Source of the DNA: an uncultured Bacteroidales bacterium
GTDB lineage: Bacteria; Bacteroidota; Bacteroidia; Bacteroidales; JBBRXJ01
Direction of reading: 5' to 3'
Assembly: GCA_964549265.1 (NCBI GenBank)
Contig: CAZJWE010000002.1
Coordinates: forward strand, 1,040-65,039
DNA length: 64,000 nt
Shown here piece by piece: positions 3-22,510 of the stretch (positions are counted from its first letter, which is position 1; each line of letters opens with the position of its first letter). Under the pieces are notes generated by a model that saw only the letters and a list, made by a program, of their open reading frames with translations, was not told where the DNA came from and did not search any database. The translations under genes and the position numbers were made by a program.

Positions 3-3000
3 CCCAATATTTTAATCATTGGAACACACACCAACCTTTTTTGGTTTTTTGACCTTGCTAAACGAAAGTTTGTCGAAAAGCAGGAAATAACATTTATTCT
101 TAATAAAACAAATGGTTCTGTAAAAACATATTGCATGCATAAAGATGAAACAGGTAATTTATGGATTGGAACACCCAATACACTGAATATATACAATCCA
201 AAAAAGCCTGAACTTCTGTATTCAACAAAAGCTTTTAAGAATGGCTCACTCGCTAATGAACCTTACAGGGATCAAGCCTATACAATATTTGAAGACAGAG
301 ACAACATTATATGGGTTTCATTTATGACCATGGGCATTGAGAAATATGTTCCGAAAAAATCTGTTTTTTTCAGATATAAAACAACGATTAAAAAACCAGG
401 TAAACAGCGTGATTATATAAAAAAAATCATTGAAACCAATCATTTACTTTATATAGCTACTTATGGAGATGGATTACTGATAACAGATAAAGACGGCAAA
501 TTGATTAAAAGAGTTAATTTGGCATACTATACAAAATCAGAAATGTCCAATGCGACTAGGGACATCTCTTTTGATAAAAAGGGCAGACTTTGGATTGCTA
601 CAGATAATGGACTGCATTACTACAATCCATTAACAGATCGTATTGAACAATCATTCTTTATGTCTTCAAACGATGATAACATTTTACCCAAACACTTAAT
701 TACCAAATTAGTGAAAGAAAACGATAGCACCATCTGGGTGTTATCTGATGCATGGTTTAAAAAATTAAACCCGTTACAATTAACATTTCATGAAACCGAA
801 TTAACCCGAATTGCCAAATCCGACAATCCAATTATATTATGGTACCAGGACAGGGATGGAAACTATTGGATAAGATATCCGAAAAGCATTCTTTTTTATA
901 ATCCTGCAAAAGATACAACAATACATTATACTCCAAAAACATTCCCTCCTATTGTTGTTGCTTCTTCTATGTGCATGTTGCATGCACGTTCCGGAAATTA
1001 TTGGTTTGGGACATCAAATGCACTGTATATGTATGATAAAGAAAACAATATTTTCAAGCATTTTTCCGGGAATGATAAATTTAAATCAAATTTTGTATTG
1101 GATATAGAAGAAGACAGCAAGGGGAGAATCTGGATCCTCACAGATAAGGGGCTTACAATTTATGCTCCAGAAAAAAATGAATTCATACAATATGGAAAAC
1201 AAAATGGATTATCTGAACGAGCCGATTACATTAATCACGGCAAAAACAATTTCTTTTTTATTACTGACGAAAGCAGCTTCTATCATTTTCATCCGGATAG
1301 CATAAAGATGGAAAGCTTACAGGCTCCGCTTTTGTTAAATCAATTTTCTGTTTCAGGAAAACCAGTCGAAATATCGTCAACTCCCCTTTCCGGGGTTAGT
1401 ATACAATATAAAAAACAGATTGAATTGCCGTATTCCAAAAATTCAATTGGCTTTAAATTTAGTTTACTGGACTATTCATCCCCTAAAAATCACACCTATT
1501 CTTACAGGTTGTTGGGAAGTGATTCATCCTGGATTTACATTGGAAATAACAATTCAGTGAATTTCACAGGCTTATCACCTGGCAGATACAATCTTGAGAT
1601 AAAAGGGAAGGCCATGAATAAAACGGGGGAAAGCATGTCACCCAAATTATCCATTGTCATCCGTCCACCATTCTGGACAAGCATATGGGGATATAGTTTA
1701 TATGGCTTTTTAGGTTTGCTGGCATTCCTGATTTACAGGTTTCTTACTATAAAAAAGATGAAAAATGAACATGCCTTATTAATGGAAAAAATAAACATCG
1801 AAAAAGCCCGGGAACTCGATCAATTAAAACTCAATTTTTTCTTTAACATATCACATGAAATTCGTACTCCTCTCACACTTATTTCAGGCCCGTTATCACA
1901 ATTAACAAAACAAAAAATAAATGCCGAAGGAACCCAATCATTAAATCTAATACAAAGAAATGTCTCGCGCCTGAAAGAAATAGTAAACCAACTCCTTGAT
2001 ATTGGAAAACTTGAGATGGGAAAATACAAACCGGCAATCATTAAAGGAAATCCCCGCGATTTATTTGTTGAAATCATACATTCATTTGAACCGTTTTGCC
2101 AAAAAATGGATTTAACCTTTCACTATAAACTGGATGAATTCACTTCTGATTGTTGGTATAGTCCTGATGCCTGTGAAAAAATCATTTCCAACCTGCTTAG
2201 CAACGCTATTAAGCATACCGGTAGAGGAGGCCAAATTGAATTTGGCTGTACCCTGCTGGAGTCTATTCCTAAAGATGATACTACGGATGCTATGATGAAT
2301 ATTGTAAATAATCAGTATGTAAGCAATAGCAGGTATTTATTCCTTGAGGTATCTGATACCGGAGAAGGCATTGACGCATCAGAACTATCAGCTATATTTA
2401 ACCGTTTTCATCAATCCATAAAAAAGGGAACTAAACCTTCTTTTGGATCGGGATTAGGATTATCGCTTACAAAAGACCTTGTTAAACAAATGGGTGGGAG
2501 GTTATACATTCAAAGTGCACTTAAAAAAGGTACAAAAATAAAGGTGTATTTGCCATTGGACAGAAATGCCTTTCCAAAAAACTATATCGAAAAAAAGAGG
2601 ATGGATCATCATCATGAAATGAATAAAGAACATGTAAACATGTTGGCCAATACCAACGATTTAATATTCGAAGAAGATACATCCGGTACCAATAAAAAAA
2701 GGCGAATGAATATTTTATTGGTTGATGATAATGAAGACCTGTTAATGTTTTTGAAGGGATTAATAAAAAAACATTATCATGTGATAATGGCAAAAAACGG
2801 GAACGAAGCCATTCATAAGATCCGGAACACAAGTGTTGATATGGTTATTTCCGATATCATGATGCCCGAGATGGATGGGTTAGAGTTATGTAAAACCATA
2901 AAAAGTGATGTATCCACAAGCCATATCCCAATTATCCTGCTCACTGCAAAAAGTTCAGAAGAAGATGAGATTAAAGGATTGAAAATCGGTGTTGAAGATT

Positions 3001-3458
3001 ATATTTCTAAACCTTTTAGTCCGGAAGCATTGCTTCTTAGAGTGTCAAATATCATAGAAAGCCGCAAAAAGATACAGGAAAAAATTGACTATGGTCTGGA
3101 GTTAATTCCTGTGGAAGACAAATTGACGGATTATGATAATTACCTGTTGAATAAAATATTAGAGACGATCCGTGAAAACATATCCGATTCTGATTTAGGC
3201 CCCGAAAAAATTTGCAATGCCGTTGGAATAAGCCAGTCACATTTATACCGTAAGGTCAATGCATTGGCCAATCAATCTGTCAAAGAACTTATCAGAAACA
3301 TAAGATTAAATAAAGCATCCGAAATCCTCAGGGAAGGCAAAAATGTTAGTATTAACAATTTAGCTTATTCGCTTGGTTTCAGTACACCCGGATATTTCAT
3401 AAAGATGTTCAGGAAGAAATTTGGGGTGACGCCTAAGGCATATAATAACAAGCCTTAA
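3..3458 (+). CDS. hybrid two-component sensor histidine kinase/response regulator with AraC-type HTH (HTCS); 5' end cut by window edge
   Basis: Frame is open from nt 3 to the listed ATG at 135, so the gene starts upstream of the window. Propeller-like repeats (NLWIGT, RLWIAT, RIWILT). One TM segment (FWTSIWGYSLYGFLGLLAFLIY). H-box FNISHEIRTPLTLI. ATPase boxes LSNAIKHT, DTGEGI, GSGLGLS. Receiver LLVDDNEDLL...ISDIMMPEMDG. C-terminal AraC HTH LAYSLGFSTPGYFIKMFRKKFGVTP. Confidence 0.9.
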   Translation, partial: PNILIIGTHTNLFWFFDLAKRKFVEKQEITFILNKTNGSVKTYCMHKDETGNLWIGTPNTLNIYNPKKPELLYSTKAFKNGSLANEPYRDQAYTIFEDRDNIIWVSFMTMGIEKYVPKKSVFFRYKTTIKKPGKQRDYIKKIIETNHLLYIATYGDGLLITDKDGKLIKRVNLAYYTKSEMSNATRDISFDKKGRLWIATDNGLHYYNPLTDRIEQSFFMSSNDDNILPKHLITKLVKENDSTIWVLSDAWFKKLNPLQLTFHETELTRIAKSDNPIILWYQDRDGNYWIRYPKSILFYNPAKDTTIHYTPKTFPPIVVASSMCMLHARSGNYWFGTSNALYMYDKENNIFKHFSGNDKFKSNFVLDIEEDSKGRIWILTDKGLTIYAPEKNEFIQYGKQNGLSERADYINHGKNNFFFITDESSFYHFHPDSIKMESLQAPLLLNQFSVSGKPVEISSTPLSGVSIQYKKQIELPYSKNSIGFKFSLLDYSSPKNHTYSYRLLGSDSSWIYIGNNNSVNFTGLSPGRYNLEIKGKAMNKTGESMSPKLSIVIRPPFWTSIWGYSLYGFLGLLAFLIYRFLTIKKMKNEHALLMEKINIEKARELDQLKLNFFFNISHEIRTPLTLISGPLSQLTKQKINAEGTQSLNLIQRNVSRLKEIVNQLLDIGKLEMGKYKPAIIKGNPRDLFVEIIHSFEPFCQKMDLTFHYKLDEFTSDCWYSPDACEKIISNLLSNAIKHTGRGGQIEFGCTLLESIPKDDTTDAMMNIVNNQYVSNSRYLFLEVSDTGEGIDASELSAIFNRFHQSIKKGTKPSFGSGLGLSLTKDLVKQMGGRLYIQSALKKGTKIKVYLPLDRNAFPKNYIEKKRMDHHHEMNKEHVNMLANTNDLIFEEDTSGTNKKRRMNILLVDDNEDLLMFLKGLIKKHYHVIMAKNGNEAIHKIRNTSVDMVISDIMMPEMDGLELCKTIKSDVSTSHIPIILLTAKSSEEDEIKGLKIGVEDYISKPFSPEALLLRVSNIIESRKKIQEKIDYGLELIPVEDKLTDYDNYLLNKILETIRENISDSDLGPEKICNAVGISQSHLYRKVNALANQSVKELIRNIRLNKASEILREGKNVSINNLAYSLGFSTPGYFIKMFRKKFGVTPKAYNNKP

Positions 3459-3465
3459 CAAAAAA

Positions 3466-3496
3466 AGCCCCAATCCTTAATGATGAGATTGGGGCT
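3466..3496. terminator. hairpin terminator between convergent genes
   Basis: agccccaatc (3466-3475) pairs perfectly with gattggggct (3487-3496). An A-run lies before it and ttt after, between the HTCS stop and the minus-strand ORF end. Confidence 0.6.
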
Positions 3497-3553
3497 TTAA
3501 ATTAATAGTTTACTAAACTAAAACTAAGCTCAAATATTATCAGTATGAAATGA

Positions 3554-3871
3554 CTATTCCTTTATAAAAATCTTTTTCACTATTCCTTGTTCTATATTGC
3601 ATGTAATTACATACATACCTGGCATAAGGTCAGAAACATCTATCTGCTGAATGTTATTATTTTGTATTTCAATGAGTGTGTTTCCGGTTAAATCACTTAC
3701 TTTAATACTTGAGATCCCTTCTATTCCGGAAATTTTTAATATTTTTTTAATAACTTTGTATAACGTAATAAGGTTCAAATTCGAGGCGTGTAAGAAACCT
3801 AAACCTGAGAATACTGGAGTATTTGAAGATTTAGATTTTGGATAACTATTTATAAAAACTATGTTACACAT
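3554..3871 (-). pseudogene. orphan T9SS type-A C-terminal sorting domain fragment (no passenger domain)
   Basis: C-terminal ~55 aa (IKVSDLTGNTLIEIQNNNIQQIDVSDLMPGMYVITCNIEQGIVKKIFIKE) matches the Por secretion tail pattern. The ORF is only 105 aa and its 5' end overlaps the next gene. Confidence 0.4.
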
Positions 3872-4427
3872 TCGGTTTCGTTATGCATCGCGGCCTAAAA
3901 AAAAATTTCCCGAAGAAAACAAGGCTTTCGGAGGGATGCTGGGCGGACATATTTACATTCAAATCAATGAAACATTATATGGTTTCCAACCTGCTGACTA
4001 TAACCAGTATCATTTTTTCCCGCACAAACCTTATAATGCTGTTTACACCAAACAACACATAAAGGATTGGTGGGTTTCAGAACAACACAACAAGCTATTA
4101 ACCATTGATATTCCTATTTCTTCTCAGCACCTCCACAGGTTAAGAGAGCTTCTTGAGCAATATCATCAGAGTGCACCATATGATTATGCTGTATTAGGTA
4201 TGAGGTGTGCTTCTTCCACGCATCATGTTCTCTCCAAAACAGATATTTTTTGTCCATCATCTATGATGAAAAGCTGTATATTGAATCCTATTCCCCGGTG
4301 TTTGCGGCGAAAACTGGTGAAAAAGGCTGTACATAATCATTGGAACATGAAGATTCATCAAGGAAGCTCTAAAAGAATATGGGAACAATCATTTAAAATG
4401 ACAAAACTATATATGAAACACCCGTGA
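3861..4427 (+). CDS. hypothetical protein (His-then-Cys order, GGHIYIQ ... MRCASS, faintly like permuted papain-fold enzymes)
   Basis: Intact 188-aa ORF. No confident family recognised. Confidence 0.45.
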   Translation: MLHIRFRYASRPKKKFPEENKAFGGMLGGHIYIQINETLYGFQPADYNQYHFFPHKPYNAVYTKQHIKDWWVSEQHNKLLTIDIPISSQHLHRLRELLEQYHQSAPYDYAVLGMRCASSTHHVLSKTDIFCPSSMMKSCILNPIPRCLRRKLVKKAVHNHWNMKIHQGSSKRIWEQSFKMTKLYMKHP

Positions 4428-4559
4428 TAAACAAGTTTAACACACACGAACATGATTATTTTATCATGATAAGTTCCATCTGACCATTAAAAATTAAAAA
4501 ATAAACAGTTGAAATATCCATGATTTTTTTACATAGAGCAGAATATTATATATAAAGCA

Positions 4560-5081
4560 ATGCTATTCGCTGTTTTATTCGCCTTAATCATCGCTCTTCT
4601 TCTTTTCAGTTGTGAAGATGACCAACAACATGCTTCTTCATCAAAAAAAGATCTAATGGGGGAAATAATAAGTCATTCTGATTGTAAGACATTTAAAGCA
4701 GATTCTTCCGGAGATACCATATCCGATTCAATGAGTTGTGTAAAGTATACATTTATTAGTTCAACCAATACATTAAATTTAAAACACATTAACGCCGGAT
4801 TCAATTGTTGTCCTGACAGCTTATACTGCACCATTTCTTTAAGTGGAGATACCATTATTATTGAAGAACATGAATTGCATGCATTATGCAATTGTAATTG
4901 TCTGTTTGACTTAGACATAGAATTAAACAACTGCAATGCGAAGGGATATACAATTAAAGTAATAGAGCCCTATTCTCATGGCCAGAAACCATTGTGTTTT
5001 ACTATTGATTTAAGCACTGAACCGTCCGGGAGTCATTGTGTAAAGCGGTCAGAATATCCGTGGGGAATGTATAGAAAATAA
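4560..5081 (+). CDS. Cys-rich lipoprotein, unknown function
   Basis: Lipobox-like signal (ALLLFSCEDD). Multiple Cys pairs (NCCP, CNCNC). Confidence 0.55.
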   Translation: MLFAVLFALIIALLLFSCEDDQQHASSSKKDLMGEIISHSDCKTFKADSSGDTISDSMSCVKYTFISSTNTLNLKHINAGFNCCPDSLYCTISLSGDTIIIEEHELHALCNCNCLFDLDIELNNCNAKGYTIKVIEPYSHGQKPLCFTIDLSTEPSGSHCVKRSEYPWGMYRK

Positions 5082-5132
5082 CCTATTTCATGTCTTTTGC
5101 TCTTTTGATAATAATATGGTTAAAGAAATTCG

Positions 5133-6341
5133 TCAGAAACTCACTCTCAATCCGGCTGCATATATATACAATTCCGGACCGTTTCCTTTTTCAAACAGGC
5201 TCACGGGATAATAATTTATATATATTCCTAATTTTTCATACCCAATTCGTGTTGTAACTCCATAGCGGAGGGGCAGTAAATTAAAATCACCGTGGTCTTT
5301 GTCTTTGTCCTGATTTCCATCGTCGCGATGAACGATCTTTGTGTGTGACCCCAATTTTAGGGCACCAATGACACCTACCTGAAAATAGGCTTTTTGTGGA
5401 TCAGGAAATTGCACTTCCAATAATAGTGGTGCGGTAAGGTACAAAGTTGTTAGTTTTGATTTTTCGATGTTTGGAGGTGCGGTGGTATCAAGAGCAATAT
5501 CTCCATGATCGTTCACTGTTATGGTTGTCAGATTTTCAAACCTGAAATTCATCCATTCCAGTCCTATACCGGTCACCAAGCCAAATTGTCTGCCAATAAT
5601 ACCAATACTCAGGCTCGGAAAATTAAGGTTGAAATTTATTGATTTTCCGGTATGTATATCAAAGTAATTGGCATCATCCGGTACACCAAATGTATGATCT
5701 TTATTTAAAAACCCGTTCATTCCTAATTCAAAGCCTCCCCAGTTGCCTTTGAATTTCTTCTCATTTTTTTCATCTTCTTCAATATTTTTTCCTCTGTGGA
5801 TATCTACATGGGTACTTCCTTTTTTATCTTCTATAACGTTAATTTGTAAATCACCAATTCTTACTTTTGTGGAATCTTTCAAAGTACCTGTTGTATCGTT
5901 CATATCCAGTGCAGACGAATCTGGTTTTCTTTCTTTCATATTCATACTTGCAGTAATCCCACTCATCTGTTCATCAATTCGTTTCTCTAATTTTTTCATT
6001 GATATATTCATCATGGCATCTACATTTTCTTTGGTAATATTTGCAGACCGGCTTTTTACAGAATCGTAGATAACACTGCCGGAAGATTGGATTTTTAACC
6101 CATTTTCGCTATCAATAACCTTAAAAAAAGTTTTCTCATTTATTTTGATCTCCACACCACTTTCCTGCTCTTGTACCTGAAAAAGGCTTTTGTCCCCCAT
6201 TTTTAACTGCACCCCATCATCCGTTTCTATGACTTCAAATAAATTATATATTGAAGTATCTGTAAGGCTGGTATCATTTTGTTGACTCACGACCATTTGA
6301 AAAGTATAAAAGCTTGCTAAGATTATGATTATTGTTTTCAT
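5133..6341 (-). CDS. secreted/outer-membrane protein with C-terminal beta-barrel-like half
   Basis: Signal peptide MKTIIIILASFYTFQMVVSQ. The C-terminal half has alternating hydrophobic strands ending ...YAAGLRVSF (terminal Phe). Confidence 0.55.
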   Translation of the reverse strand: MKTIIIILASFYTFQMVVSQQNDTSLTDTSIYNLFEVIETDDGVQLKMGDKSLFQVQEQESGVEIKINEKTFFKVIDSENGLKIQSSGSVIYDSVKSRSANITKENVDAMMNISMKKLEKRIDEQMSGITASMNMKERKPDSSALDMNDTTGTLKDSTKVRIGDLQINVIEDKKGSTHVDIHRGKNIEEDEKNEKKFKGNWGGFELGMNGFLNKDHTFGVPDDANYFDIHTGKSINFNLNFPSLSIGIIGRQFGLVTGIGLEWMNFRFENLTTITVNDHGDIALDTTAPPNIEKSKLTTLYLTAPLLLEVQFPDPQKAYFQVGVIGALKLGSHTKIVHRDDGNQDKDKDHGDFNLLPLRYGVTTRIGYEKLGIYINYYPVSLFEKGNGPELYIYAAGLRVSF

Positions 6342-6570
6342 CTGTTTATTTTTGATTATATAATTGCAGCCCTTTGTATAAGGCTGACCAAAAAGTTCAT
6401 CATTTAAGAAATGTCACTAAAATAAAAAAACTCCAAATCCTACAAAAAAAGATAATTAAACAATTATATTTTGAGGATCTTTGTGCTTTAGTAATTTTGT
6501 AGCGAAAAATTAACTTTCTGTACAGCCTCAGCTGCTTTGAGATTAATGTTTAAAGGTAGGATAGCAAAAA

Positions 6571-6783
6571 TTAGTCCAATGTAATATCTTTACATAGCTC
6601 CTCTAACATTTCGCAAGGTTTAACATTAATGGCCAGGGCAATTTTATACATTCCCTCCACACTTAACCGGGTTGATGTGCTATTGCATAGCTGTCCGATG
6701 CGCTGACGCCCCAGTTTTGTTTTTCTTCCAATCTCTGCTTTATTTACTGATCTTTGTGCAAGGTACAATCCTAATCTGGTCAT
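6571..6783 (-). CDS. small XRE/Cro-like HTH protein
   Basis: 70 aa. The segment KAEIGRKTKLGRQRIGQLCN resembles a helix-turn-helix. Confidence 0.5.
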   Translation of the reverse strand: MTRLGLYLAQRSVNKAEIGRKTKLGRQRIGQLCNSTSTRLSVEGMYKIALAINVKPCEMLEELCKDITLD

Positions 6784-6874
6784 TTTGGTATATTTTTCTT
6801 GCTACAAAGTTAGAGTTTTAACACGGATGTTAATTTTTTCAGAGATATATTGCAGCATTTAGCAAAAAATTGGA

Positions 6875-6882
6875 TACATTTG
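6875..6882 (+). promoter_or_regulatory. Bacteroidota -7 box (TAnnTTTG): TACATTTG
   Basis: Matches the published Bacteroidetes sigma-A -7 consensus. Lies 73 nt upstream of the ATG at 6955. Confidence 0.35.
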
Positions 6883-6954
6883 TAATAATATTTATGACAA
6901 TTGACAATAATATTTTGCTCATTTTAATTTAATCATGTAATATCCCCGTTAATC

Positions 6955-7344
6955 ATGAATTATAAAGGGATTTTTAATCATTGCAAAATACTCATTGCAG
7001 AAGACAATTCTTCTTGCCGGATGCTCATCAAAGAATTATTGGAAATAACCGGTGCTGAATTGATATTTGTAGATAATGGTTATAAAGCCATTCACTTATG
7101 CATTAAAAATCCGGCGATTAATATTGTGATAATGGACATAATCATGCCGGGGATGAATGGCCTGATTGCAGCAAAACATATAAAGAAATACAGGAAAAAT
7201 ATCCCGGTCATTGCTCTGAGTGCAGCAGTGTATAATCAAAACATTGATAACAGTTATGAAACAGTCTGTGATGCATTTTTAGAAAAACCAATCACCAAAC
7301 AACAACTTATAGATGTTTTAATAGATTGTCTTGTTTCAAATTAG
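6955..7344 (+). CDS. stand-alone response-regulator receiver (CheY-like)
   Basis: KILIAEDNSSCRMLIKELLE ... NIVIMDIIMPGMNG ... IPVIALSA. No output domain. Confidence 0.8.
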   Translation: MNYKGIFNHCKILIAEDNSSCRMLIKELLEITGAELIFVDNGYKAIHLCIKNPAINIVIMDIIMPGMNGLIAAKHIKKYRKNIPVIALSAAVYNQNIDNSYETVCDAFLEKPITKQQLIDVLIDCLVSN

Positions 7345-7411
7345 GTGGTTGTCTTTTAAGGTAACTACTTTCCCAAAGTTCAATTTTATTATGCAGTTAA
7401 GATAAATGAGT

Positions 7412-7870
7412 TTATATCTCTTTAACAATTGTTTTCACATTCCCCATGCACACATAATTAAAATGAAACCGGCATTTGAGGAAGTATGTTGATTTTATTT
7501 TTTTGGAACAAACCATTTCAACCTCTCCAATAATCTCTTTTGATACATCAATGGGGTTTTTATATTTCACGAATTGCTCTGTAATAAATGTTTTACTATT
7601 CTGGAATTCCATCACTCCCTGAAACATTCCATCATTTTTCAAAAAGTTAAAAATACCTATGTGGGCATAATAGACATATAGCAATTGGTTCAGGCATATT
7701 TGCAGTTCTACAGCTGTAAAATGTCGGGCTGTAATGAATGTGCTGTAAAAATTATTGAATATCTGAAATTTCCCAACCCCTTTATTCCCCGATAATTCAA
7801 ATGATTTTAAATAGCGTACAGCTTCATTATAAGGCTGTAAAAATGTATCTATCAATTCATTTGTGTTCAT
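7412..7870 (-). CDS. hypothetical protein (possibly hot-dog/FcoT-like thioesterase fold)
   Basis: Intact 152-aa ORF. HFTAVELQICLNQLLYVYY is weakly reminiscent of hot-dog fold helices. The function call is low confidence. Confidence 0.4.
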   Translation of the reverse strand: MNTNELIDTFLQPYNEAVRYLKSFELSGNKGVGKFQIFNNFYSTFITARHFTAVELQICLNQLLYVYYAHIGIFNFLKNDGMFQGVMEFQNSKTFITEQFVKYKNPIDVSKEIIGEVEMVCSKKIKSTYFLKCRFHFNYVCMGNVKTIVKEI

Positions 7871-7918
7871 GACTGTGTATCATCTATTTATTTACAAAAA
7901 TAGTGATATTTTTTGATA

Positions 7919-8035
7919 TGGAGTCCAAACGTTCCCAAAGTCAAACAACTTCATTATACAAAAGAAATATTTTTTATGTAAATGAGCCATTTTGGTGCAA
8001 GCGAAACCAAGTTAGCAGACATGATGGAACAAACA
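7919..8035. repeat. R2 intergenic repeat, compact copy A
   Basis: ggagtccaaacgttcccaaagtcaaacaacttcattat ... ttttggtgcaagcgaaaccaagttagcagacatgatggaacaaac. Both halves recur at 36716-36952 and the right half at 45171-45227. Confidence 0.7.
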
Positions 8036-9079
8036 CTATTTAAATCCATTTTTTTGCGGAGTATATCCATATTGGTCTAACAATTGATAAATTTTGACCA
8101 TTTTGTCTGTTTCCTGTACCAGGTCTTCAAAAAACTGAAGGTATAATGTGGTATTGTCCTGCATATTTTCTAACAGATAATGAACCACGTCATATTCTGA
8201 GTTTAAGTTTTTGTTTAAGCTTACAATTCCTTCTTCTAAATGCATGTTTGAATGGATATGTGGGGCTAAAATAGTGGTCCCGGAGAAGTTACGGATAATC
8301 TCTGCCGGGTCACTGCTTACAATCATGCTCCAGTTTTTGGCTTTTGCATTGTGAATATTTTTAATGTTGTCGAAGTATTGAGGGAGCCATGTACAAGAAT
8401 GATAATGAACAGGCCCTGTTTCTTTGGTGATACGGTTGATATAATCCACTGAAAACTCTCGATGCATCTCGGGAGACACCATGGAGTTGGTATCGTCTGC
8501 TATATAAAAGCCAGGAGGCTGACTCCAAATTTGCGGGAAACATGAAGGGTTATACTGGTCACCCATTACATTTTGTAATGCTTTAATATACAATATAGTA
8601 AATTCGGTTATTTTGTTTAATAATTCATGTACTTCTTGCGGATTGGTTAATAATGAAGTATAAAATGTATCTCCCCACATTAACTCTGCTACACCCAATG
8701 GTGACTGAATATCGGGGAACCTGATATGAATCTGGGGATCATTTATTAACATGGACTTAATCAAATCAAGTATTTCACCTGTTCTTCCTTTATCAACAGC
8801 AGGGATTTTGATTTGTTTTATATCTTCCGGCTCATGTATGCAAGGTGAAACCCATTCTTTCCCTTCGGATGTGAATTTTTTTTGGCAGCCCATAGCCAAA
8901 GGGATGGTATGTGTCAGCCCATAAAACGGTTCGGGGTTTACCGGAACATTCGGGGTCCAATCCCATTGATTCACTTTTAATTTTTCAGAAATTCCCTGGT
9001 CTGCACCTCCCGTATAAATGCAGAACTTTTGATCAGGTTGCTCATACAAATCATTCAAAAATTTTCCCATGGTATTCAT
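8036..9079 (-). CDS. uroporphyrinogen-decarboxylase (URO-D)-like family protein
   Basis: 347 aa. IADDTNSMVSPEMHREFSVDYINRI...VHYHSC resembles the URO-D/MtaA-type TIM-barrel core. The family call was not verified. Confidence 0.45.
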   Translation of the reverse strand: MNTMGKFLNDLYEQPDQKFCIYTGGADQGISEKLKVNQWDWTPNVPVNPEPFYGLTHTIPLAMGCQKKFTSEGKEWVSPCIHEPEDIKQIKIPAVDKGRTGEILDLIKSMLINDPQIHIRFPDIQSPLGVAELMWGDTFYTSLLTNPQEVHELLNKITEFTILYIKALQNVMGDQYNPSCFPQIWSQPPGFYIADDTNSMVSPEMHREFSVDYINRITKETGPVHYHSCTWLPQYFDNIKNIHNAKAKNWSMIVSSDPAEIIRNFSGTTILAPHIHSNMHLEEGIVSLNKNLNSEYDVVHYLLENMQDNTTLYLQFFEDLVQETDKMVKIYQLLDQYGYTPQKNGFK

Positions 9080-12234: not shown

Positions 12235-12349
12235 TACTGTCCAAGTGCTTAACAGGTAAAATTAAAAAAAGCAATCCTAAGAGGTAATTGCTTAACCCGA
12301 AAAATTCATCGCAAACCGATAGGAATCAATAAAAATACCGGTTATATAT

Positions 12350-12439
12350 TATGGGCCAAAATCAATCCGGTTTGCCCCGGTCCTGAAGGGAGCCGGATTA
12401 TTTTTGGCGGTTACATCTAAAACTCTCGGAAATATGTAA
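12350..12439 (+). repeat. R1 hairpin element, L-type solo copy E1 (stem partly degraded)
   Basis: gggccaaaatcaatccggtttgccccggtcctgaagggagccggattatttttggcggttacatctaaaactctcggaaatatgtaa. Homologous to 13413-13502, 14851-14941 and 22314-22404. Confidence 0.85.
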
Positions 12440-12450
12440 ATTTGATTTAA

Positions 12451-13472
12451 TTTTCTTTTTGTATTTTTATTCTACATAAACAAATTGTCACAATATTAAA
12501 TTATTGACCAGTATGAATGAACAAAAAATTGAAAAGATAAGCACAACCGACAATCAAAAGAAAGAAATCCATAAAGCAATTCAATCCGGTAACTACGCCC
12601 ACAACGAAAAAGTCTGGACATACTTTGTTGCACATTTAATCTTAAACAGTAAGAATAAAAAACAACTTTTGGAAAAATTCCTGGGTGGAAATAGTATAAA
12701 GGAACCCTGTGTAAAGGAAATGGAGATATGGTATGAGGCCCAACCCATTTCACCACGAAAAGGGGTGAGCGGAAATAGTGAAGGGAACACATGTTTGGAC
12801 ATGTCCTTTGGTGCCATAAAAAAAAGAGAAGAAACAGACGGTGGCATTGAATTCTCTCCCAAAAAAGGCTGCACATGGGCCTGTTTTATAGAAGCAAAAG
12901 TACTCTCCGACTGCAGCACAGATGTGAGTTACGACCCATTCCGCAACCAAATTACCCGTGTAATAGAAAATCTGGTGACATTTCAAAACGCTAAAGAAAA
13001 AAGCAGTTACCCCAACCCCTGCTATTTTACATTGCTGACACCACGGGCATTTAAAGAAAGGCCCTATTCAAAATTATACGGATATAAATATTTTGAATAC
13101 CATGACTGGCAAAGAATAGAACAAGATTTTGAATTATGCTGCATTGACAAACGAAAGGAAAGCCGGTGGGAATATCCAAAATACATTTCCAAACGCCTCT
13201 CCACCCTCAAACTAAACTGGGTAACCTATGAAGAGATCATTGAACAAGAGCTGGGCATAACTAATTTTGATCTGCTGGAGTTTATTAAGGTGAAGAACCG
13301 GAAAGAACAGAAAGAAATAATGGATGAAGGGATGAAAAAAGAGAAGAGGTATTTTGATAAAATAAAAGAAGAGCTGTTTAAATATCTAAAAGAAAATGAA
13401 TTGGCTTAACATATTGGGCCAAAATCAATCCGGTTTGCCCCGGCCCTGAAGGGAGCCGGATTGATTTTGACG
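12451..13472 (+). repeat. direct repeat DR-A (~1.02 kb; promoter region, nuclease-like gene and hairpin)
   Basis: Near-identical to 21353-22374. It begins at ttttctttttgtatttttattctacataaacaaattgtcaca and runs through the gene into the hairpin. Confidence 0.9.
12513..13409 (+). CDS. PD-(D/E)xK nuclease-motif protein, copy 1 (family unknown)
   Basis: The ORF track starts at TTG 12504; ATG 12513 is more likely. Motif NTCLD(12798-12800)MSF ...x26... WACFIE-A-K(12891-12899)VLSD then FRNQITR, i.e. D...ExK followed by a conserved Q. Second copy at 21414-22310. Confidence 0.7.
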   Translation: MNEQKIEKISTTDNQKKEIHKAIQSGNYAHNEKVWTYFVAHLILNSKNKKQLLEKFLGGNSIKEPCVKEMEIWYEAQPISPRKGVSGNSEGNTCLDMSFGAIKKREETDGGIEFSPKKGCTWACFIEAKVLSDCSTDVSYDPFRNQITRVIENLVTFQNAKEKSSYPNPCYFTLLTPRAFKERPYSKLYGYKYFEYHDWQRIEQDFELCCIDKRKESRWEYPKYISKRLSTLKLNWVTYEEIIEQELGITNFDLLEFIKVKNRKEQKEIMDEGMKKEKRYFDKIKEELFKYLKENELA

Positions 13473-13502
13473 GTTACATCTAACACTCTCGGAAATATGT
13501 AA
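13413..13502 (+). repeat. R1 hairpin element, L-type solo copy E2
   Basis: The conserved element starts 3 nt after the stop at 13407-13409 and the hairpin 6 nt after it. The 14-bp stem caaaatcaatccgg/ccggattgattttg encloses tttgccccggccctgaagggag, followed by the shared tail cggttacatctaacactctcggaaatatgtaa. Confidence 0.85.
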
Positions 13503-13564
13503 TTTTATGGGTTAATGAAATAAATATTTTTACAATAATGTATAATATATTTCACAATAATACA

Positions 13565-13686: not shown

Positions 13687-13902
13687 ATGGAAATGGTATG
13701 TGAAAGGGCTATGATAAGCCGAATTACACTTACTAAAATTGAAAAAGGCGATCCTTCTGTAAGTTTGGGTGCTTATTTTAAGGTGTTGTCCATTTACAAT
13801 CTTGAAAAAGACATAACCGTATTGGCCAAAGATGATGTATTTGGTAAGAAACTGCAAGATATAGGATTAATCACAAAAAAACGTGCACCCAAAAAACAAT
13901 GA
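13687..13902 (+). CDS. XRE/HipB-like HTH antitoxin (N-terminus uncertain)
   Basis: MEMVCERAMISRITLTKIEKGDPSVSLGAYFKVL is an HTH. The frame is open upstream to 13576 and encodes helix-1-like LGEQIKLARLRRKLS, but has no ATG/GTG/TTG there. 4-nt ATGA overlap with the HipA-like gene. Confidence 0.65.
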   Translation: MEMVCERAMISRITLTKIEKGDPSVSLGAYFKVLSIYNLEKDITVLAKDDVFGKKLQDIGLITKKRAPKKQ

Positions 13903-14687
13903 CACAACAAAACAAAATATATGTATTCGAGCAATTTGGAGACGCTCCAAAATTGATGGGTATCCTAAATGTTGACAAGGTAAGAGGAAAAGAAACATTC
14001 TCCTTTGAATACAATAAAAACTGGCTTAAAACAAATTCCTACCCTTTACTTGACCCCGACATACAACACTACAATGGCATTCAGTATCTTCAAGATGAAA
14101 ACAAGCCAAACTTTGGGATATTCCTTGATTCCTCTCCAGACAGATGGGGCAGGGAACTTATGCAGCGCAGGGAAGCAATTTATGCCAGAAACGAAAACAG
14201 AAAAAGAATTCACGTAGCCTCTGCTATGACAATGTTGGGCTACTATGACGGGTATAACGAAAATGTAAGCTATCTTGAAATAGCTGATTTTTTAACCCGG
14301 CATTCTGTTAATCCGCACAAAAATCTACAGGAACTATTTCGTAGGATTGCATTTAACATCAGCGTGTCAAATTGTGATGACCATCTCAGAAATCACAGTT
14401 TTATATTTGACAAAAAAGGTATTTCACTTTCCCCGGCTTATGATATTAACCCAGATGAAATAGGACATGGGTTAAGCCTGAATATTTCCCTGCATGATAA
14501 CAGCCTTGACCTGGAAATTCTAATGGATACCCATGAATATTACGCGCTTCAAAAAGACGAAGCCTTGCAGATAATTGAACAAGTAAAAGGTGCAGTATCA
14601 GGATTTGATGTTGTGGCAAAAAAGACCGGGTTATCAAAAACAGAAATTGACAAAAAAGCTGTCGCATTTAAACAAGCAATGAGATAA
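13899..14687 (+). CDS. HipA-family kinase toxin with large in-frame internal deletion (probably inactive remnant)
   Basis: N-terminal HipA coupling region (FLDSSPDRWGRELMQRREAIYAR) joins directly to the C-terminal lobe (HVASAMTMLGYYDG ... ISVSNCDDHLRNHSFIF ... LSPAYDINP). The product is 262 aa versus roughly 400+ aa for typical HipA. No P-loop/ATP-binding segment is visible. Confidence 0.7.
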   Translation: MTQQNKIYVFEQFGDAPKLMGILNVDKVRGKETFSFEYNKNWLKTNSYPLLDPDIQHYNGIQYLQDENKPNFGIFLDSSPDRWGRELMQRREAIYARNENRKRIHVASAMTMLGYYDGYNENVSYLEIADFLTRHSVNPHKNLQELFRRIAFNISVSNCDDHLRNHSFIFDKKGISLSPAYDINPDEIGHGLSLNISLHDNSLDLEILMDTHEYYALQKDEALQIIEQVKGAVSGFDVVAKKTGLSKTEIDKKAVAFKQAMR

Positions 14688-14850
14688 AGAATAAACCTGC
14701 TTTATTTTTGAGCCCGGGTATAAATGTAAAACAAGATAGATAATTGTTAACAGAATTAGCATGTATTTGTTGCCAAAAAACAATATCGTTTGAATATTTT
14801 GAAATCTAAAAATCATAAGGTACTTGACAAATAATGTGAAAGATTATATT

Positions 14851-15048
14851 ATTGGGCCAAAATCAATCCGGTTTGCCCCGGCCCTGAAGGGAGCCGAATT
14901 GATTTTGCCGGTTATCACATAAACAACCGGAAATATATAATGTTGATTTTTTAAATATATACACCTGAAATAAATAGCGTTTTCGCTGAAAATCCGGGCT
15001 CCCTTCAGGGTCGGGGCAAAACCTGATTTTCAGCCCGTATTGGTAGTA
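14851..15048. mobile_element. R1 doublet E3: REPIN/MITE-like element (L hairpin 14854-14911, spacer, inverted R hairpin 14985-15034)
   Basis: The L and R hairpins carry the same loop core in opposite orientation (ccctgaagggagcc vs ggctcccttcaggg) with different self-complementary stems. The spacer and ends are about 90% identical by eye to 22314-22510. Confidence 0.8.
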
Positions 15049-15097
15049 ATTGTTAAAATTTTTTACACGAATCTATCTTGTAAAAAAAAATATACTA

Positions 15098-15237
15098 CCT
15101 GACGAGAATATAAAATGCAGAATTTTGGAATTACGGTAATCCGATTTGATAACCATGAAGTTTTTGAGAAATTGGAAAATGTGGTGAATAAAATCAAAAG
15201 GTATTTGGATAATAATGGAAGAAAATTTATTGTATAG
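15098..15237 (+). pseudogene. DUF559 (Vsr-like endonuclease) C-terminal remnant
   Basis: DENIKMQNFGITVIRFDNHEVFEKLENVVNKIKRYL matches the typical DUF559 C-terminus (G..V.RF.N.EV). An in-frame TGA lies just upstream and no N-terminal part is present. It sits 50 nt after E3. Confidence 0.55.
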
Positions 15238-18200
15238 ATAGTTTCTTAAGCTTGTTATTTGCTTGAAATGTTGGGAAATACATTAATTCAACCTGTGCTG
15301 GGTTCATCGTGTAAGTTCCTGTATATCTAGGAGTCAAGATTATTTCAAAAGAATATTCCCCCGCTTTTAATCGTTCGCAAAAAATTGTTGTTTTGTGTTT
15401 AAAATATTCCCGATGTGTTTCATTACAATAATTATTTTTCTTTTCAGCATATGAGCATCCACCTGGTATTGGAATATTGATCATTAAATATTCAGCATCT
15501 TTTTTAATTTTTACATTTGCGATAAGTTTTACTTTTTCTCCGGATTTAAGAAATCCATCTGTTTTATTGTCAAAATATGTTGTAATTTCAAAATCATTCT
15601 TCCTTTCTTCTGGTTGAGGGTTAAAATATTCCTGGTAGTGTATCAGATATACGGGAAAATCACCTTTTTTTTCAATTTGAATCTCCTGGTCTGGTTTCAA
15701 TTTCATATCAAACGGAAATTCGGTTATATTTTTTGATATGTCTCCACGTATATGCAATACCGTCTCATCCAGTTTCTCCTTTCCTCCTATCAGGTCAGGA
15801 AGAATGGTTTCAATGATCTGAGCCGACTCATATGTATTCCGCCAATGTCCATTATTACGTTTTTCAAAAAAGTAATTCATGATTTTCAATAACAAATTTT
15901 CATGATCATTGGTATCGAGTTTATAAATGGAATATGCCAGCAACGTATTTTGTATAGTATTATCTGATAAGCTCCAATTTCTTGTAGTGTCTGAAAAATA
16001 AACATTCCCAAATAAAGTAGTATCTGTATAATATTGCAATGTATCAATATTGTATGAAATTTGTCTAAACTGTTTTAATTGAATGAATTTCAACAAGTCA
16101 TTCAATCCTAAATTCATTTTCCCAATTCTCGTAACATATTTTTCATAATCTGCTGAAGCATTGAGTAGGTGCAGGGCTTTCAAAAGCCTTAACTGCAAAC
16201 CAACATTATGATTGTTTTCAAGTTTCCATACCAGTTCCGATGCCAATACCTCTTTATTAATATCAATTTCATAGCCCATTTTCTCAGCTTTTAACAGTGC
16301 TTCTAATACGTGCATCGTAATCCAGTAATTATCTTTTGAATTTTTCCACCATCCCCATAAACCCGATTCTTTTCGGTTTTTGATCAATAGCCTGATTAAT
16401 TTTTTAGCTTTTTGATCTGACCTGAATGGTTTTTCGTTATATGATGCAATGGTTTTTTCAGCTAAAAGAGCTTTTAATTTAGATGCAATTTGTTCATTGC
16501 AACCATAAACATAATTGATCACATAGCTTATTTCATCTGCAATGACATCCAGCACATCTGATCTTGCATAAATATTCACAGTCCCGAGTGTTGTATCGAA
16601 TACCGGATGAATGATTGTATCATGGTTTAAAACATAAAATTCTCCGTTGGCTTCTTTCAGTCCTACGGGGAATACAGGGATATCTCTTAATTCACCATCG
16701 AAATAACCGTCTTCCTTTTCCAGTTTATACAATATTTTTAATGAATCTGCTTTTGCAATAACTGGCAACGTATCCAATACAGCATCTTTGCAAAATATGT
16801 TCCGGGTAAATAATACCGTATCATTTAATTCAAACGTTGTCTTCACCCAAATGGAATCAGTGGTATAATTAAGCGTTTTCCCAATAGCATACGTGGAGTC
16901 TGACATGATCAAAAACCGGGGTGCTGCCAATTGAGCCATAAAGGGCTTGTATGATTTTATGTACCCTTGTTCCTGTCCCGATTGCCTCTTCCCATTCATA
17001 GCAAGGTAATAGGTTTCCCAGCTGGTGACATCATCTGGGAATATTACATCAAATACTACCTTACCGTCTTGGTCTGTTCTCAGGGTAGGTTTCCAAAATG
17101 CAGCATCAGAAAAATTTTGCCGTATTGAGCTCGCACCTGTCGATTCCGTGAGAAGTGCAGGACTAAAATCAGCGCCTTTTGCTCCCATATTCCGGAATTG
17201 CAAGAAATTGACAATATTATGTAATCCTTTCTTTGTTTCAATGATCACTACCCCATTGGCACCTCTTATTCCATATATAGCTGTAGCTTCATTTCCTTTT
17301 AGCACCTTAATGCTTTTTATATCCTGAGTCTTTAATTCAGTCACTATTGATTCTTCAGTACATACCAGCCCGTCAATAACAAAAAGAAGACTCTCCATAT
17401 TTGGAGAACCTACGCCCCTGATCCTTATTCCATGGGGGGCTCCTGGCGCACCGGAATTTGCTGCTATAAACACGCCCGCAGCTTCCCCTTGTAACACTTC
17501 TGATCTTAGTATAGGTATACTTTCAATGTCTCTTGACTCTACCACTTCAATAGAAGATGTTAAATCATGTTTTTTTACTGTTCCATAACCAACCACTATA
17601 ATTTCATCCAATTGTTGTGTTGATGGTTCAAGAGTAATATCATAATTAAATCGTTGACTCACTTTAAAGGTTTTTTCTTCATATCCTACAAAACTCACTT
17701 GTATTTCTGCATTCCGTGAAAGTAAATGAAGTACATAATGGCCGTCTATATCTGTAGTAGTTCCATTTGTAGTTCCTTTTTCAATAATATTAGCTCCTAT
17801 CATGGGTTCTCCATTCTCATCGAAGACATCTCCCTCTATCGTTCCGACAAAATCTGTAAAAAGATGATCCAGATGATATTTAGTATATATTTTGTTAATC
17901 TTACATCGTTCATAATTAAATGATGTCCTCGCCCCTGAATTAGCGATAATATCATCAATAATACCATCCAATTCAACACTAAAACTATCTTTCTTAAAAT
18001 CTTTTGGTTGAGTAATGACTTGGTACGTTTGCCCATCAGGCTGAATATATATAGAATCTTGCATATAATATTCTGCCCCAAGATACAGGAAAGCCAATCT
18101 ATAATTTCCTTTTTTTAAATGATGAAAGACATTGACATTGCCGGGATATATCCTTAAATAGTGAGGGTCTTCATGTTTAAAAACCAGTATACTCAATGGA

Positions 18201-21205: not shown

Positions 21206-21352
21206 TGGTTGATATTTAAAGTTATATTTTTTAACCCAGCATTTTAAAAATGATAATGAATAACAAAAGCTAATGTAGCAAAAAAAAATAAGTTAAAAAA
21301 ATGCCTCTTAAATACGATCCTTTAGAATTTGTTAATCTTCCATTAAATTTAT

Positions 21353-22374
21353 TTTTCTTTTTGTATTTTTATTCTACATAAACAAATTGTCACAACATTA
21401 AATATTGACCAGTATGAATGAACAAAAAATTGAAAAGATAAGCACAACCGACAATCAAAAGAAAGAAATCCATAAAGCAATTCAATCCGGTAACTACGCC
21501 CACAACGAAAAAGTCTGGACATACTTTGTTGCACATTTAATCTTAAACAGTAAGAATAAAAAACAACTTTTGGAAAAATTCCTGGGTGGAAATAGTATAA
21601 AGGAACCCTGTGTAAAGGAAATGGAGATATGGTATGAGGCCCAACCCATTTCACCACGAAAAGGGGTGAGCGGAAATAGTGAAGGGAACACATGTTTGGA
21701 CATGTCCTTTGGTGCCATAAAAAAAAGAGAAGAAACAGACGGTGGCATTGAATTCTCTCCCAAAAAAGGCTGCACATGGGCCTGTTTTATAGAAGCAAAA
21801 GTACTCTCCGACTGCAGCACAGATGTGAGTTACGACCCATTCCGCAACCAAATTACCCGTGTAATAGAAAATCTGGTGACATTTCAAAACGCTAAAGAAA
21901 AAAGCAGTTACCCCAACCCCTGCTATTTTACATTGCTGACACCACGGGCATTTAAAGAAAGGCCCTATTCAAAATTATACGGATATAAATATTTTGAATA
22001 CCATGACTGGCAAAGAATAGAACAAGATTTTGAATTATGCTGCATTGACAAACGAAAGGAAAGCCGGTGGGAATATCCAAAATACATTTCCAAACGCCTC
22101 TCCACCCTCAAACTAAACTGGGTAACCTATGAAGAGATCATTGAACAAGAGCTGGGCATAACTAATTTTGATCTGCTGGAGTTTATTAAGGTGAAGAACC
22201 GGAAAGAACAGACAGAAATAAAGGATGAAGGGATGAAAAAGGTGAAGGCGTATTTTGATAAAATAAAAGAAGAGCTGTTTAAATATCTAAAAGAAAAAGA
22301 ATTGGCTTAACATATTGGGCCAAAATCAATCCGGTCTGCCCCGGCCCTGAAGGGAGCCGGATTGATTTTGCCGG
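21353..22374 (+). repeat. direct repeat DR-B (partner of 12451-13472)
   Basis: Same sequence as DR-A. Differences are one substitution plus a 1-nt indel upstream of the ATG, a cluster of substitutions in the last ~100 nt of the gene, and two in the hairpin. Confidence 0.9.
21414..22310 (+). CDS. PD-(D/E)xK nuclease-motif protein, copy 2
   Basis: Identical to copy 1 for the first 269 of 301 listed residues. 5 substitutions fall in the last 32 (QTEIKDEGMKKVKAY...KEKELA vs QKEIMDEGMKKEKRY...KENELA). Confidence 0.7.
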   Translation: MNEQKIEKISTTDNQKKEIHKAIQSGNYAHNEKVWTYFVAHLILNSKNKKQLLEKFLGGNSIKEPCVKEMEIWYEAQPISPRKGVSGNSEGNTCLDMSFGAIKKREETDGGIEFSPKKGCTWACFIEAKVLSDCSTDVSYDPFRNQITRVIENLVTFQNAKEKSSYPNPCYFTLLTPRAFKERPYSKLYGYKYFEYHDWQRIEQDFELCCIDKRKESRWEYPKYISKRLSTLKLNWVTYEEIIEQELGITNFDLLEFIKVKNRKEQTEIKDEGMKKVKAYFDKIKEELFKYLKEKELA

Positions 22375-22510
22375 TTACCACATAAACAACAAGAAATATG
22401 TAATGATGATTTTTTAAATATATACCTGAAATAAATAGCGTTTCCGCTGAAAATCAGGGCTCCCTTCAGGGGCCAGGGCAAAACCTGATTTTCAGCCTAT
22501 ATTGGTAGTA
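22314..22510. mobile_element. R1 doublet E4: REPIN/MITE-like element (L hairpin 22317-22374, inverted R hairpin 22446-22496)
   Basis: The conserved element starts 3 nt after the copy-2 stop and the hairpin 6 nt after it. Same architecture and terminal attggtagta as E3. Confidence 0.8.

Follow-up and report, generated by a model that had tools for sequence, protein, structure and literature searches.

A divergent PD-(D/E)xK-like nuclease gene beside a probably independent family of conserved-loop hairpins in an uncultured Bacteroidales bacterium

A 64,000-nt stretch of contig CAZJWE010000002.1 from an uncultured Bacteroidales bacterium (here, the window; positions refer to it unless another locus is named, and statements on hairpin density cover this window only) contains two copies of a gene for a 298-aa protein resembling PD-(D/E)xK nucleases and six copies of a short hairpin, three of which directly flank a nuclease gene. 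The initial annotation of this DNA proposed a selfish module in which the nuclease mobilizes the hairpins or uses a co-transcribed hairpin as an RNA or DNA cofactor, by analogy with repetitive extragenic palindromes (REPs) and their REP-associated tyrosine transposases (RAYTs) or with TnpB and its omega RNA. The analysis presented here favors, with a probability of about 60%, another reading, namely, that two separate things lie side by side, a divergent nuclease gene and independent hairpins similar to REPs and bacterial interspersed mosaic elements (BIMEs), in an arrangement that was copied by local duplication. The features of the locus are as follows.

12349 to 12439, plus strand: hairpin element A1, with its stem at 12357 to 12406, the loop TTTGCCCCGGTCCTGAAGGGAG and a TTACAT..ATGTAA tail.
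12445 to 12512, plus strand: leader and putative promoter of nuclease gene copy 1, inside the duplicated unit and conserved with the closest orthologous locus, L124.
12513 to 13409, plus strand: nuclease gene copy 1, 298 aa, unnamed PD-(D/E)xK-like family (D96, E127, K129, D133, N145, Q146, R149).
13412 to 13510, plus strand: hairpin element A2, arms at 13420 to 13433 and 13456 to 13469, the right end of the duplicated unit.
13687 to 14687, plus strand: genes for a helix-turn-helix (HTH) protein (71 aa) and a HipA_C kinase (262 aa), a toxin-antitoxin-like pair (hipBA) between hairpins A2 and A3.
14850 to 14945, plus strand: hairpin element A3, arms at 14858 to 14871 and 14894 to 14907, after hipA.
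14985 to 15034, minus strand: hairpin B1, stem GCTGAAAATCCGG/CCTGATTTTCAGC, same loop, inverted relative to A3.
15117 to 15239, plus strand: C-terminal remnant (~40 codons) of a DUF559 endonuclease gene (PF04480, 22.1 bits, E = 1.5e-4).
21345 to 21413, plus strand: leader of copy 2 and start of the duplicated unit, without an upstream hairpin.
21414 to 22310, plus strand: nuclease gene copy 2, 298 aa, with 5 amino acid differences, all in the C-terminal tail.
22313 to 22405, plus strand: hairpin element A4, arms at 22321 to 22334 and 22357 to 22370, a hybrid whose 5' side resembles A2 and whose 3' tail resembles A3.
22446 to 22496, minus strand: hairpin B2, the inverted partner of A4, with the flank TATTGGTAGTA common to B1.

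Both gene copies (100% and 98.3% identical to the query protein in tblastn for copies 1 and 2, respectively) and the hairpin that follows each of them were recovered as initially annotated, and so was the hairpin upstream of copy 1, A1, which has the same orientation as A2. Three further hairpins were found, A3 after hipA and the inverted B1 and B2. The duplicated unit of ~1.07 kb (~12445 to 13510 and ~21345 to 22400) consists of the gene with a leader of ~65 nt before it and a single hairpin element after it, and its left edge lies directly after the end of A1. The cores of the two duplicates are identical over ~800 nt, with the differences concentrated in the last ~90 nt of the coding sequence and in both flanks.

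The 298-aa protein, which the initial annotation could not place in any named family, fits none: searches of Pfam, NCBIfam, PADLOC and the PDB sequences with the single sequence or a profile yielded no match. A word-indexed search retrieved 32 relatives, and an exhaustive HMMER search of 1.84 billion representatives retrieved 336, the family amounting to ~340 clusters at 50% identity. The coordinates originally given for the D and E-x-K motifs were correct (in copy 1, D96 is encoded at 12798 to 12800, E127 at 12891 to 12893, K129 at 12897 to 12899 and N145-Q146 at 12945 to 12950). Eight residues, D96, E127, K129, D133, D141, N145, Q146 and R149, are invariant in 28 homologues; in 40 representatives that are 26 to 51% identical, D96, E127, K129, N145, Q146 and R149 are at least 90% conserved and D133 is invariant. 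In the AlphaFold2 model (mean predicted local distance difference test score of 84, predicted template modeling score of 0.85), D96 immediately precedes strand 97-100, strand 123-128 contains E127 and is closely followed by K129, and helix 146-155, which bears the NQxxR residues, is followed by strand 170-176. As far as a prediction can tell, this is the PD-(D/E)xK order of elements, an alpha-beta-beta-beta-alpha-beta core in which D starts strand 2 and ExK is on strand 3. The D...ExK core recognized in the initial annotation is thus both conserved and compatible with the predicted topology. Structure comparison gave a divided answer, in that PD-(D/E)xK nucleases lead the Foldseek list against the PDB, but none of them reaches an E value of 0.001 or below (best match, MspJI, E = 0.095, along with Cap4, McrC, the R2 restriction-like endonuclease, Can2, EcoO109I and SduA); against BFVD, the best matches include UL24, DUF2800, "PD-(D/E)XK nuclease" and "restriction enzyme," none of them significant. 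Because of the conserved D96...E127-x-K129 residues and the predicted order of strands and helices, the open reading frame (ORF) likely encodes a divergent, unnamed nuclease of the PD-(D/E)xK fold, which, by analogy with this superfamily, would cleave phosphodiester bonds in a metal-dependent manner via D96, E127 and K129.

The genomic contexts of the homologues are those of accessory or effector genes of defense-island operons, or of integron cassettes. Different sub-clades keep different protein partners: the homologue is the third gene after an AAA_5 (McrB-like) ATPase gene and a 450-aa gene, beside BREX (brxC/brxB); it lies behind a gene for a PLD-HerA fusion, with WYL and AAA neighbors; it comes after genes for MBL/RMMBL-fold nucleases; or it is accompanied by a DUF2779 protein. 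PADLOC-DB 2.0 matched neither the window protein nor the BREX-adjacent homologue, but only neighbors (HerA and a weak McrB-like AAA). Type IV or McrBC-like defense nucleases (MspJI, McrC, Cap4, Can2 and the Shedu protein SduA) share with the family the D...ExK residues, the predicted core topology and the best, though weak, structural matches, as well as the position of homologues behind McrB-like AAA_5 ATPases beside BREX and behind PLD-HerA genes. Unlike them, the window protein is solitary and has no recognized sensor domain, and neither sequence nor structure searches matched it significantly (all E > 0.001). Most likely, judging from these neighborhoods, the solo gene of the window encodes a stand-alone defense or type IV-like restriction nuclease. 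The family as a whole is unannotated, and its recurrence in operons with McrB-like, HerA/PLD or MBL genes, beside BREX, and in an integron-like array makes it a candidate defense nuclease.

The integron-like array was found in "Candidatus Moduliflexus flocculans" (DF820456.1; positions 195 to 8827 of the retrieved locus, L028), where the homologue is one unit among nine attC-like repeats of ~115 nt. These repeats (GCCTAAC...GTTAGGC) separate small co-directional genes, including those for DUF6173, the nuclease homologue, DUF4160, DUF2442 and BrnT, among others; the two on either side of the homologue carry RYYYAAC...GTTRRRY at their ends and have folding energies of -52 to -64 kcal/mol. By its sequence, the array looks like a chromosomal integron cassette array, and the folded repeat after the homologue belongs to the integron, not to the nuclease. 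Phage-resistance genes have been described on integron cassettes (bioRxiv 10.64898/2026.03.17.712381).

The hairpins of the window form a compact set. With at most 1 mismatch allowed, the loop core CCTGAAGGGAGC was counted 6 times where 0.08 were expected, and a 30-nt hairpin core 4 times where 0 were expected; all six hairpins lie between 12.3 and 22.5 kb. Four of them, on the plus strand, are of type A, with the stem CAAAATCAATCCGG/CCGGATTGATTTTG (12357 to 12406, 13420 to 13469, 14858 to 14907 and 22321 to 22370), and two, on the minus strand, are of type B, with the stem GCTGAAAATCAGG/CCTGATTTTCAGC (14985 to 15034 and 22446 to 22496); the loop TTT(T)GCCCCnGCCCTGAAGGGAG is common to both types. 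The stems of A2 and A4 are perfect 14-bp arms without a conserved bulge. When folded as RNA, the window hairpins have energies between -23 and -31.5 kcal/mol and z-scores between -1.5 and -3.4. The repeat unit begins 3 nt past the nuclease stop (13412), the stem proper 9 to 11 nt past it, and A1 lies between a 666-aa beta-helix gene, the stop of which is 115 nt upstream, and the nuclease ATG, which is 74 nt downstream. A3 and B1 form one inverted doublet and A4 and B2 another, and the A3-B1 stretch can fold as a single 190-nt hairpin (-83 kcal/mol, z = -8.4) like a REPIN, a hairpin-forming doublet of REPs. Two other sequences may be decayed relatives of the family: a hairpin at 23760 to 23800, GGGCTGAAA-(10 nt)-TTTCAGCCC followed by GGGTAT, which resembles the type B stem and flank without the conserved loop (DNA folding, z = -3.5), and AGCCCGGGTAT, which recurs just after the hipA stop (14711 to 14721).

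If the hairpin served the nuclease, it would be expected beside homologues of the gene. The sample consisted of 80 metagenomic loci and the contigs of individual homologues, ~85 loci in all, and ~0.78 Mb was searched. A regular expression for the loop motif matched beside the gene at 0 of the 80 metagenomic loci, and a loop model built with nhmmer from 17 loops detected no family member at any of the ~85 loci. The first 100 nt past the stops of the 80 loci and of the Moduliflexus homologue folded, on average, no better than shuffled sequences. Furthermore, within the window, the same hairpin also follows the unrelated hipA and beta-helix genes. The claim of a functional coupling between nuclease and hairpin, and with it that of a selfish module, is not supported because it fails this homologue test: the search near homologue stops proposed in the initial annotation turned up a hairpin only at the syntenic orthologue described below. 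A relationship of the IS200/IS605 type, with a RuvC-type nuclease (TnpB or IscB) and an omega RNA, is not supported either; there was no Pfam or Rfam match, and the homologues have no conserved 3' structure.

The closest relative of the gene lies on the 4.7-kb contig CAYMKE010000222.1 of a metagenome-assembled genome (MAG; GCA_964390955.1), designated L124 (L125 is the same DNA in another assembly), with identities of 85% for the protein and ~83% for the DNA. It is flanked by two hairpins of the same orientation, ~90 nt upstream and ~10 nt past the stop, and the locus is syntenic with the window, with the end of the beta-helix gene and fcoT upstream and, downstream, the membrane-protein gene that in the window follows copy 2. 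This synteny implies that the layout was inherited rather than invented anew, and L124 is therefore not independent evidence of coupling. An in-frame TAA (~1730 to 1735) replaces the conserved E152 in L124, and the gene is called as two ORFs (151 and 137 aa), either because it is a pseudogene or because of a read error common to two assemblies of the same data. In the orthologous stems of the window and L124, 86.5% of the cells are paired, the covariation score was reached by 3 of 500 shuffles, and in three pairs both partners changed (A-U to C-G twice, U-A to C-G, G-C to C-G). On this comparative evidence, the hairpin structure is under selection, apparently independently of an intact nuclease gene, given that L124 retains its hairpins despite the premature stop. 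Thus, the association of gene and hairpin is specific to this lineage and is explained by shared ancestry together with local duplication.

The hairpins themselves extend well beyond this lineage. A scan for the exact pattern in one genome per species gave 27 single matches, ~5 of them real, and all the real ones came from Bacteroidota: Salinimicrobium xinjiangense, a Saprospiraceae MAG, Chryseobacterium sp. legu1 and a Bacteroidales MAG (the scans of the genome and metagenome collections were single-shot). No homologue of the 298-aa protein was found within ~4 kb of the hairpins on these four contigs, although a distant copy in the same genomes is possible. Across loci, the ~22-nt loop, TTTGCCCCnGCCCTGAAGGGAG, is nearly invariant, with the core CyCTGAAGGGwG preceded by GCCCC, and it is combined with seven unrelated stem sequences from Flavobacteriia, Saprospiria and Bacteroidia, each of which pairs over 9 to 16 bp. 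The hairpins may stand alone, pair up as inverted doublets or form clusters of 6 to 10 in alternating orientation. In Chryseobacterium (L019, 4088 to 5150), for example, seven hairpins with two stem types, several of them alternating, fill 1 kb and enclose a DUF559 gene, and in S. xinjiangense (L001, 3880 to 4720) a hairpin lies ~100 nt upstream of a gene of the 23S_rRNA_IVP (four-helix-bundle) family. The latter gene is embedded in tandem repeats of the GGAGACTnGGGGAAGAGGAGAC type, and a GIY-YIG gene is found 1.1 kb away. A single covariance model for all stem types was abandoned, as the MAFFT alignment lost the register of the stems, and detection relied instead on the nhmmer loop model and the folding of each sequence. 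Rfam 15, searched in gathering and E-value modes, contains no such family and returned only chance matches to hairpin-shaped miRNAs and snoRNAs; a plasmid collection gave no protein match and no meaningful hairpin match; the loop-pattern scan of viral contigs brought up only unrelated simple hairpins; and the searchable literature held nothing relevant on the loop sequence, on REP-like repeats of Bacteroidetes or on DUF559 with hairpins. Taken together, the hairpins are an independent, REP/BIME-like intergenic family of Bacteroidota with a conserved loop and variable, covarying stems of 11 to 16 bp. The family is thus a structured repeat that spans the phylum and is absent from Rfam 15, and its conserved loop with a free stem is an unusual pattern.

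The initial proposal does have points in its favor. The hairpin-gene-hairpin order is kept in two genomes with compensatory changes in the stems, the hairpins are concentrated around the gene copies, and the same hairpin family flanks genes of DUF559, another nuclease family of the PD-(D/E)xK fold. Against these stand the ~85 homologue loci of other lineages that lack such a hairpin, the L124 orthologue, in which the hairpins persist beside an interrupted gene, the four other Bacteroidota contigs with hairpins and no nearby homologue, and the partner genes of the homologues, which point to defense operons; that the 298-aa nuclease mobilizes the hairpins or employs them as a cofactor therefore seems very unlikely. 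The preferred reading, that gene and hairpins are independent, is itself weakened by several observations. All six hairpins fall within the 10 kb that hold both gene copies, and the loop model detected none in the remaining 54 kb; three of them lie immediately beside a nuclease gene; and the sole close relative available retains the hairpin-gene-hairpin order. Given this clustering, flanking and retained layout, the association in this lineage is tighter than a random distribution of REPs. In addition, the fold assignment consists of motif and topology, with no structural match at an E value of 0.001 or below, and the defense role is drawn solely from the neighbors of distant homologues, PADLOC having no model for the protein.

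The hairpins behave like REPs and BIMEs, without any RAYT in view. Like REPs, BIMEs and REPINs, they are short, GC-rich extragenic palindromes that occur as singles, as inverted doublets folding as one hairpin and as alternating clusters; they comprise subtypes with different stems and are sometimes found around a nuclease gene. Unlike them, the window hairpins conserve a 22-nt loop rather than the stem. REP families are defined by a GTAG or CGTC tag (PMC3733652). No such tag was found at the stem base of the window hairpins, type A being flanked by ATATTGGGCC... and ...CGGTTAC, with a GTAG 13 nt from type B only. Of the 52 ORFs of the window that have 70 aa or more, the 47 larger ones were scanned with Pfam, and among these 47, across the 64 kb, there was no integrase, transposase, RAYT or Y1_Tnp match; in contrast to REP-RAYT systems, therefore, no HUH/Y1 RAYT gene accompanies the hairpins there, and the genes embedded in hairpin clusters are those of DUF559, the 298-aa family, hipBA and 23S_rRNA_IVP.

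A further explanation, compatible with the independence of gene and hairpins, is that the hairpins are cis-acting RNA elements, i.e., 3'-end structures, terminators, stabilizers or insulators, selected beside toxic genes such as those for nucleases and HipA. Five of the six window copies lie downstream of a gene and are co-oriented with it, most stem types have an A-rich 5' arm and a T-rich 3' arm, as in bidirectional terminators, and in one of the DUF559 loci (L128) the hairpin directly follows the stop; moreover, the stems covary. However, a consensus terminator scan called none of the hairpins, because the loop is 22 nt long and the T run falls inside the stem, in its 3' arm, the polarity of A and T is reversed in Salinimicrobium and in one Saprospiraceae stem, alternating clusters of 6 to 10 copies exceed what termination needs, and terminators do not conserve a 22-nt loop sequence across bacterial classes. 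Selection of the hairpins as RNA elements of toxic genes is, accordingly, a rather unlikely account of the locus, and their assignment as intrinsic (Rho-independent) terminators in particular is not supported.

The pair of nuclease and hairpin that recurs across genomes is instead that of DUF559 and the hairpin, as seen in four organisms and one remnant. DUF559 (PF04480) is a large family of Vsr-like endonucleases; the proteins found here have ~123 to 140 aa and no detected sequence similarity to the 298-aa protein. In the window, the DUF559 remnant is 80 nt from hairpin B1. Beyond the Chryseobacterium gene enclosed by hairpins, the three of its DUF559 homologues that had retrievable contigs were examined, a small sample chosen by homology to a gene that had itself been found through the hairpins, and all three have the hairpin family beside the gene. 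In the first organism (L128 to L135, GC content of 0.32, ~1300 to 2100), the hairpin AAAATGA-TTTAGCCCCAACCCTAAAGGGAG-TTCATTTT comes directly after the DUF559 stop, and a degenerate inverted copy lies upstream. In the second (L136, GC content of 0.48, 950 to 2400), ~12 matches to the loop model crowd within a few hundred bases on both sides of the gene, and in the third (L137, GC content of 0.32, 1366 to 1923), an inverted doublet just upstream of DUF559 reproduces the layout of A3, B1 and the DUF559 remnant in the window (14856 to 15239). Conserved-loop hairpins are thus found within ~100 nt of DUF559 at every DUF559 locus examined in the four organisms, as well as beside the window remnant. 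These loci resemble that of the 298-aa nuclease, in that a small gene for a PD-(D/E)xK-fold nuclease is set among hairpins of the same family, with a hairpin after the stop (L128) or on both sides (L019 and L136), but the protein family is a separate one and the link extends to at least four independent organisms, against one lineage for the 298-aa family. The notion of a nuclease-hairpin pairing hence survives in part, for DUF559, while failing for the protein for which it was proposed.

In what looks like a single organism, represented by L128 to L135, the number of DUF559 genes varies. A ~700-nt unit of DUF559 and hairpin is single in some samples and tandem in others, its copy number differing between L130 and L133 on one side and L128, L129, L131, L132, L134 and L135 on the other (~1265 to 2785). 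The unit sits in an exopolysaccharide (EPS) gene cluster (epsG/glycosyltransferase) and is bounded by 120-nt direct repeats, each containing a degenerate inverted hairpin; its duplication is explained by an unequal crossover between these repeats. Conceivably, small PD-(D/E)xK-fold nucleases, chiefly DUF559 and, in the present lineage, the 298-aa family, have the conserved-loop hairpins as their DNA or RNA partner. We consider this unlikely; if it were true, Bacteroidota would have an equivalent of the REP-RAYT pairing that employs another nuclease fold. Cleavage of the hairpin by the nuclease, or homing into it, would then account for both the embedded nuclease genes and the duplication of units of gene and hairpin. 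The specific, conserved structure beside DUF559 genes suggests a substrate for the encoded endonucleases, a hypothesis concrete enough for experimental testing.

Returning to independent elements copied by local duplication, the history of the window locus can be sketched by comparison with L124. The ancestral order would be that of L124: beta-helix gene, hairpin, nuclease gene, hairpin and membrane-protein gene. Its left flank, retained by copy 1, and its right flank, retained by copy 2, are 9 kb apart in the window; they are separated by hipBA, the A3/B1 doublet, the DUF559 remnant and, on the opposite strand, a 6-kb A2M-type gene. A duplication or gene conversion of ~1.07 kb would have copied a single ancestral gene-hairpin arrangement inside a 10-kb variable island. 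Since A4 is a hybrid of A2 and A3, the region gene-A4-B2 equals the region gene-A2-hipBA-A3-B1 minus hipBA and one hairpin, and recombination of hairpin with hairpin may have added or removed the hipBA module. Homologous recombination between repeats of 60 to 110 nt would suffice, although the integration of a circular segment with a second gene copy would also fit. In this scenario, the hairpins are probably recombination hot spots and possibly 3'-end RNA elements, rather than a cofactor or substrate specific to the 298-aa nuclease.

The same junctions could be read as those of mobile cassettes bounded by hairpins (nuclease, hipBA or DUF559, each with a hairpin), the hairpin being the recombination site of a recombinase encoded elsewhere, similar to attC in function but of another architecture. 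Such cassettes would account for the left edge of the duplicated unit directly after A1, for the switch from A2 to A3 sequence inside the A4 hairpin, as expected from a gain or loss of hipBA and one hairpin, and for the polymorphism of DUF559-hairpin tandem copies between samples, and in Moduliflexus, attC-like repeats flank a homologue of the nuclease as in a genuine cassette. Conversely, ordinary homologous recombination between repeats of 60 to 110 nt accounts for all the junctions, and unequal crossover between the 120-nt direct repeats for the DUF559 duplication; the shared sequence runs past A4 through B2; no hairpin precedes copy 2; and the 47 scanned ORFs of the window include no recombinase. 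The loci are reminiscent of integron cassettes, with a short gene followed by a folded repeat and arrays of repeat-gene-repeat, a form that the Moduliflexus homologue appears to take. Unlike attC sites, defined here by R'' RYYYAAC and R' GTTRRRY bounding an imperfect palindrome of 57 to 141 nt, the window hairpins have no R''/R' core sites, no unpaired spacer and no extrahelical bases, and the duplicated unit has its own upstream leader. A simple scan for core sites detected none in the window, although it recovered the two repeats flanking the Moduliflexus homologue, and no Phage_integrase match that could represent IntI was obtained among the scanned ORFs. The window hairpins were therefore rejected as attC sites, for want of core sites, bulges and integrase, and hairpin-bounded cassettes of any other architecture also appear unlikely.

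Beyond 25 kb, the window contains only housekeeping genes (polA, uvrC, mnmG, pheS, ruvB, priA and pfk). In the surroundings of the locus, fcoT and the 666-aa beta-helix gene lie upstream of nuclease copy 1, and a small membrane-protein gene follows copy 2. In the hipBA-like pair, which is missing from the parallel region after copy 2, the 71-aa HTH gene overlaps the short HipA_C kinase gene. The A2M-type gene, on the opposite strand between the two nuclease copies, encodes 1,992 aa with A2M/MG domains and was used to look for an empty site in a relative; none was found, the closest orthologues being only 53% identical. In Bacteroidales MAGs (L115/L116, 16338 to 23980), this 53% identical orthologue is directly followed by a tyrosine integrase and a type I restriction-modification system, and the loop model detected no hairpin in the 26 kb around it. 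Because the A2M flank carries an integrase and a type I restriction-modification system there, the neighborhood in the window can be regarded as a hot spot for islands. At the edge of the hairpin island, a gene for a 91-aa DUF2281 (antitoxin-like) protein is located at 23940 to 24215, with no recognizable toxin partner adjoining it, and a 220-aa ORF at 23034 to 23696 has no family match.

Finally, two other repeats were observed in the window. Perfect palindromes at 43196 to 43229 (17+17 nt) and 45230 to 45261 (16+16 nt), with the common core ATGTTCCAC-GTGGAACAT, are intergenic, lie on both sides of uvrC and look like operators of a single regulator. A direct repeat of 54 nt with 89% identity between its copies occurs in intergenic regions 29 kb apart, at 7920 to 7973 and 36717 to 36770, and one of the two copies adjoins fcoT.

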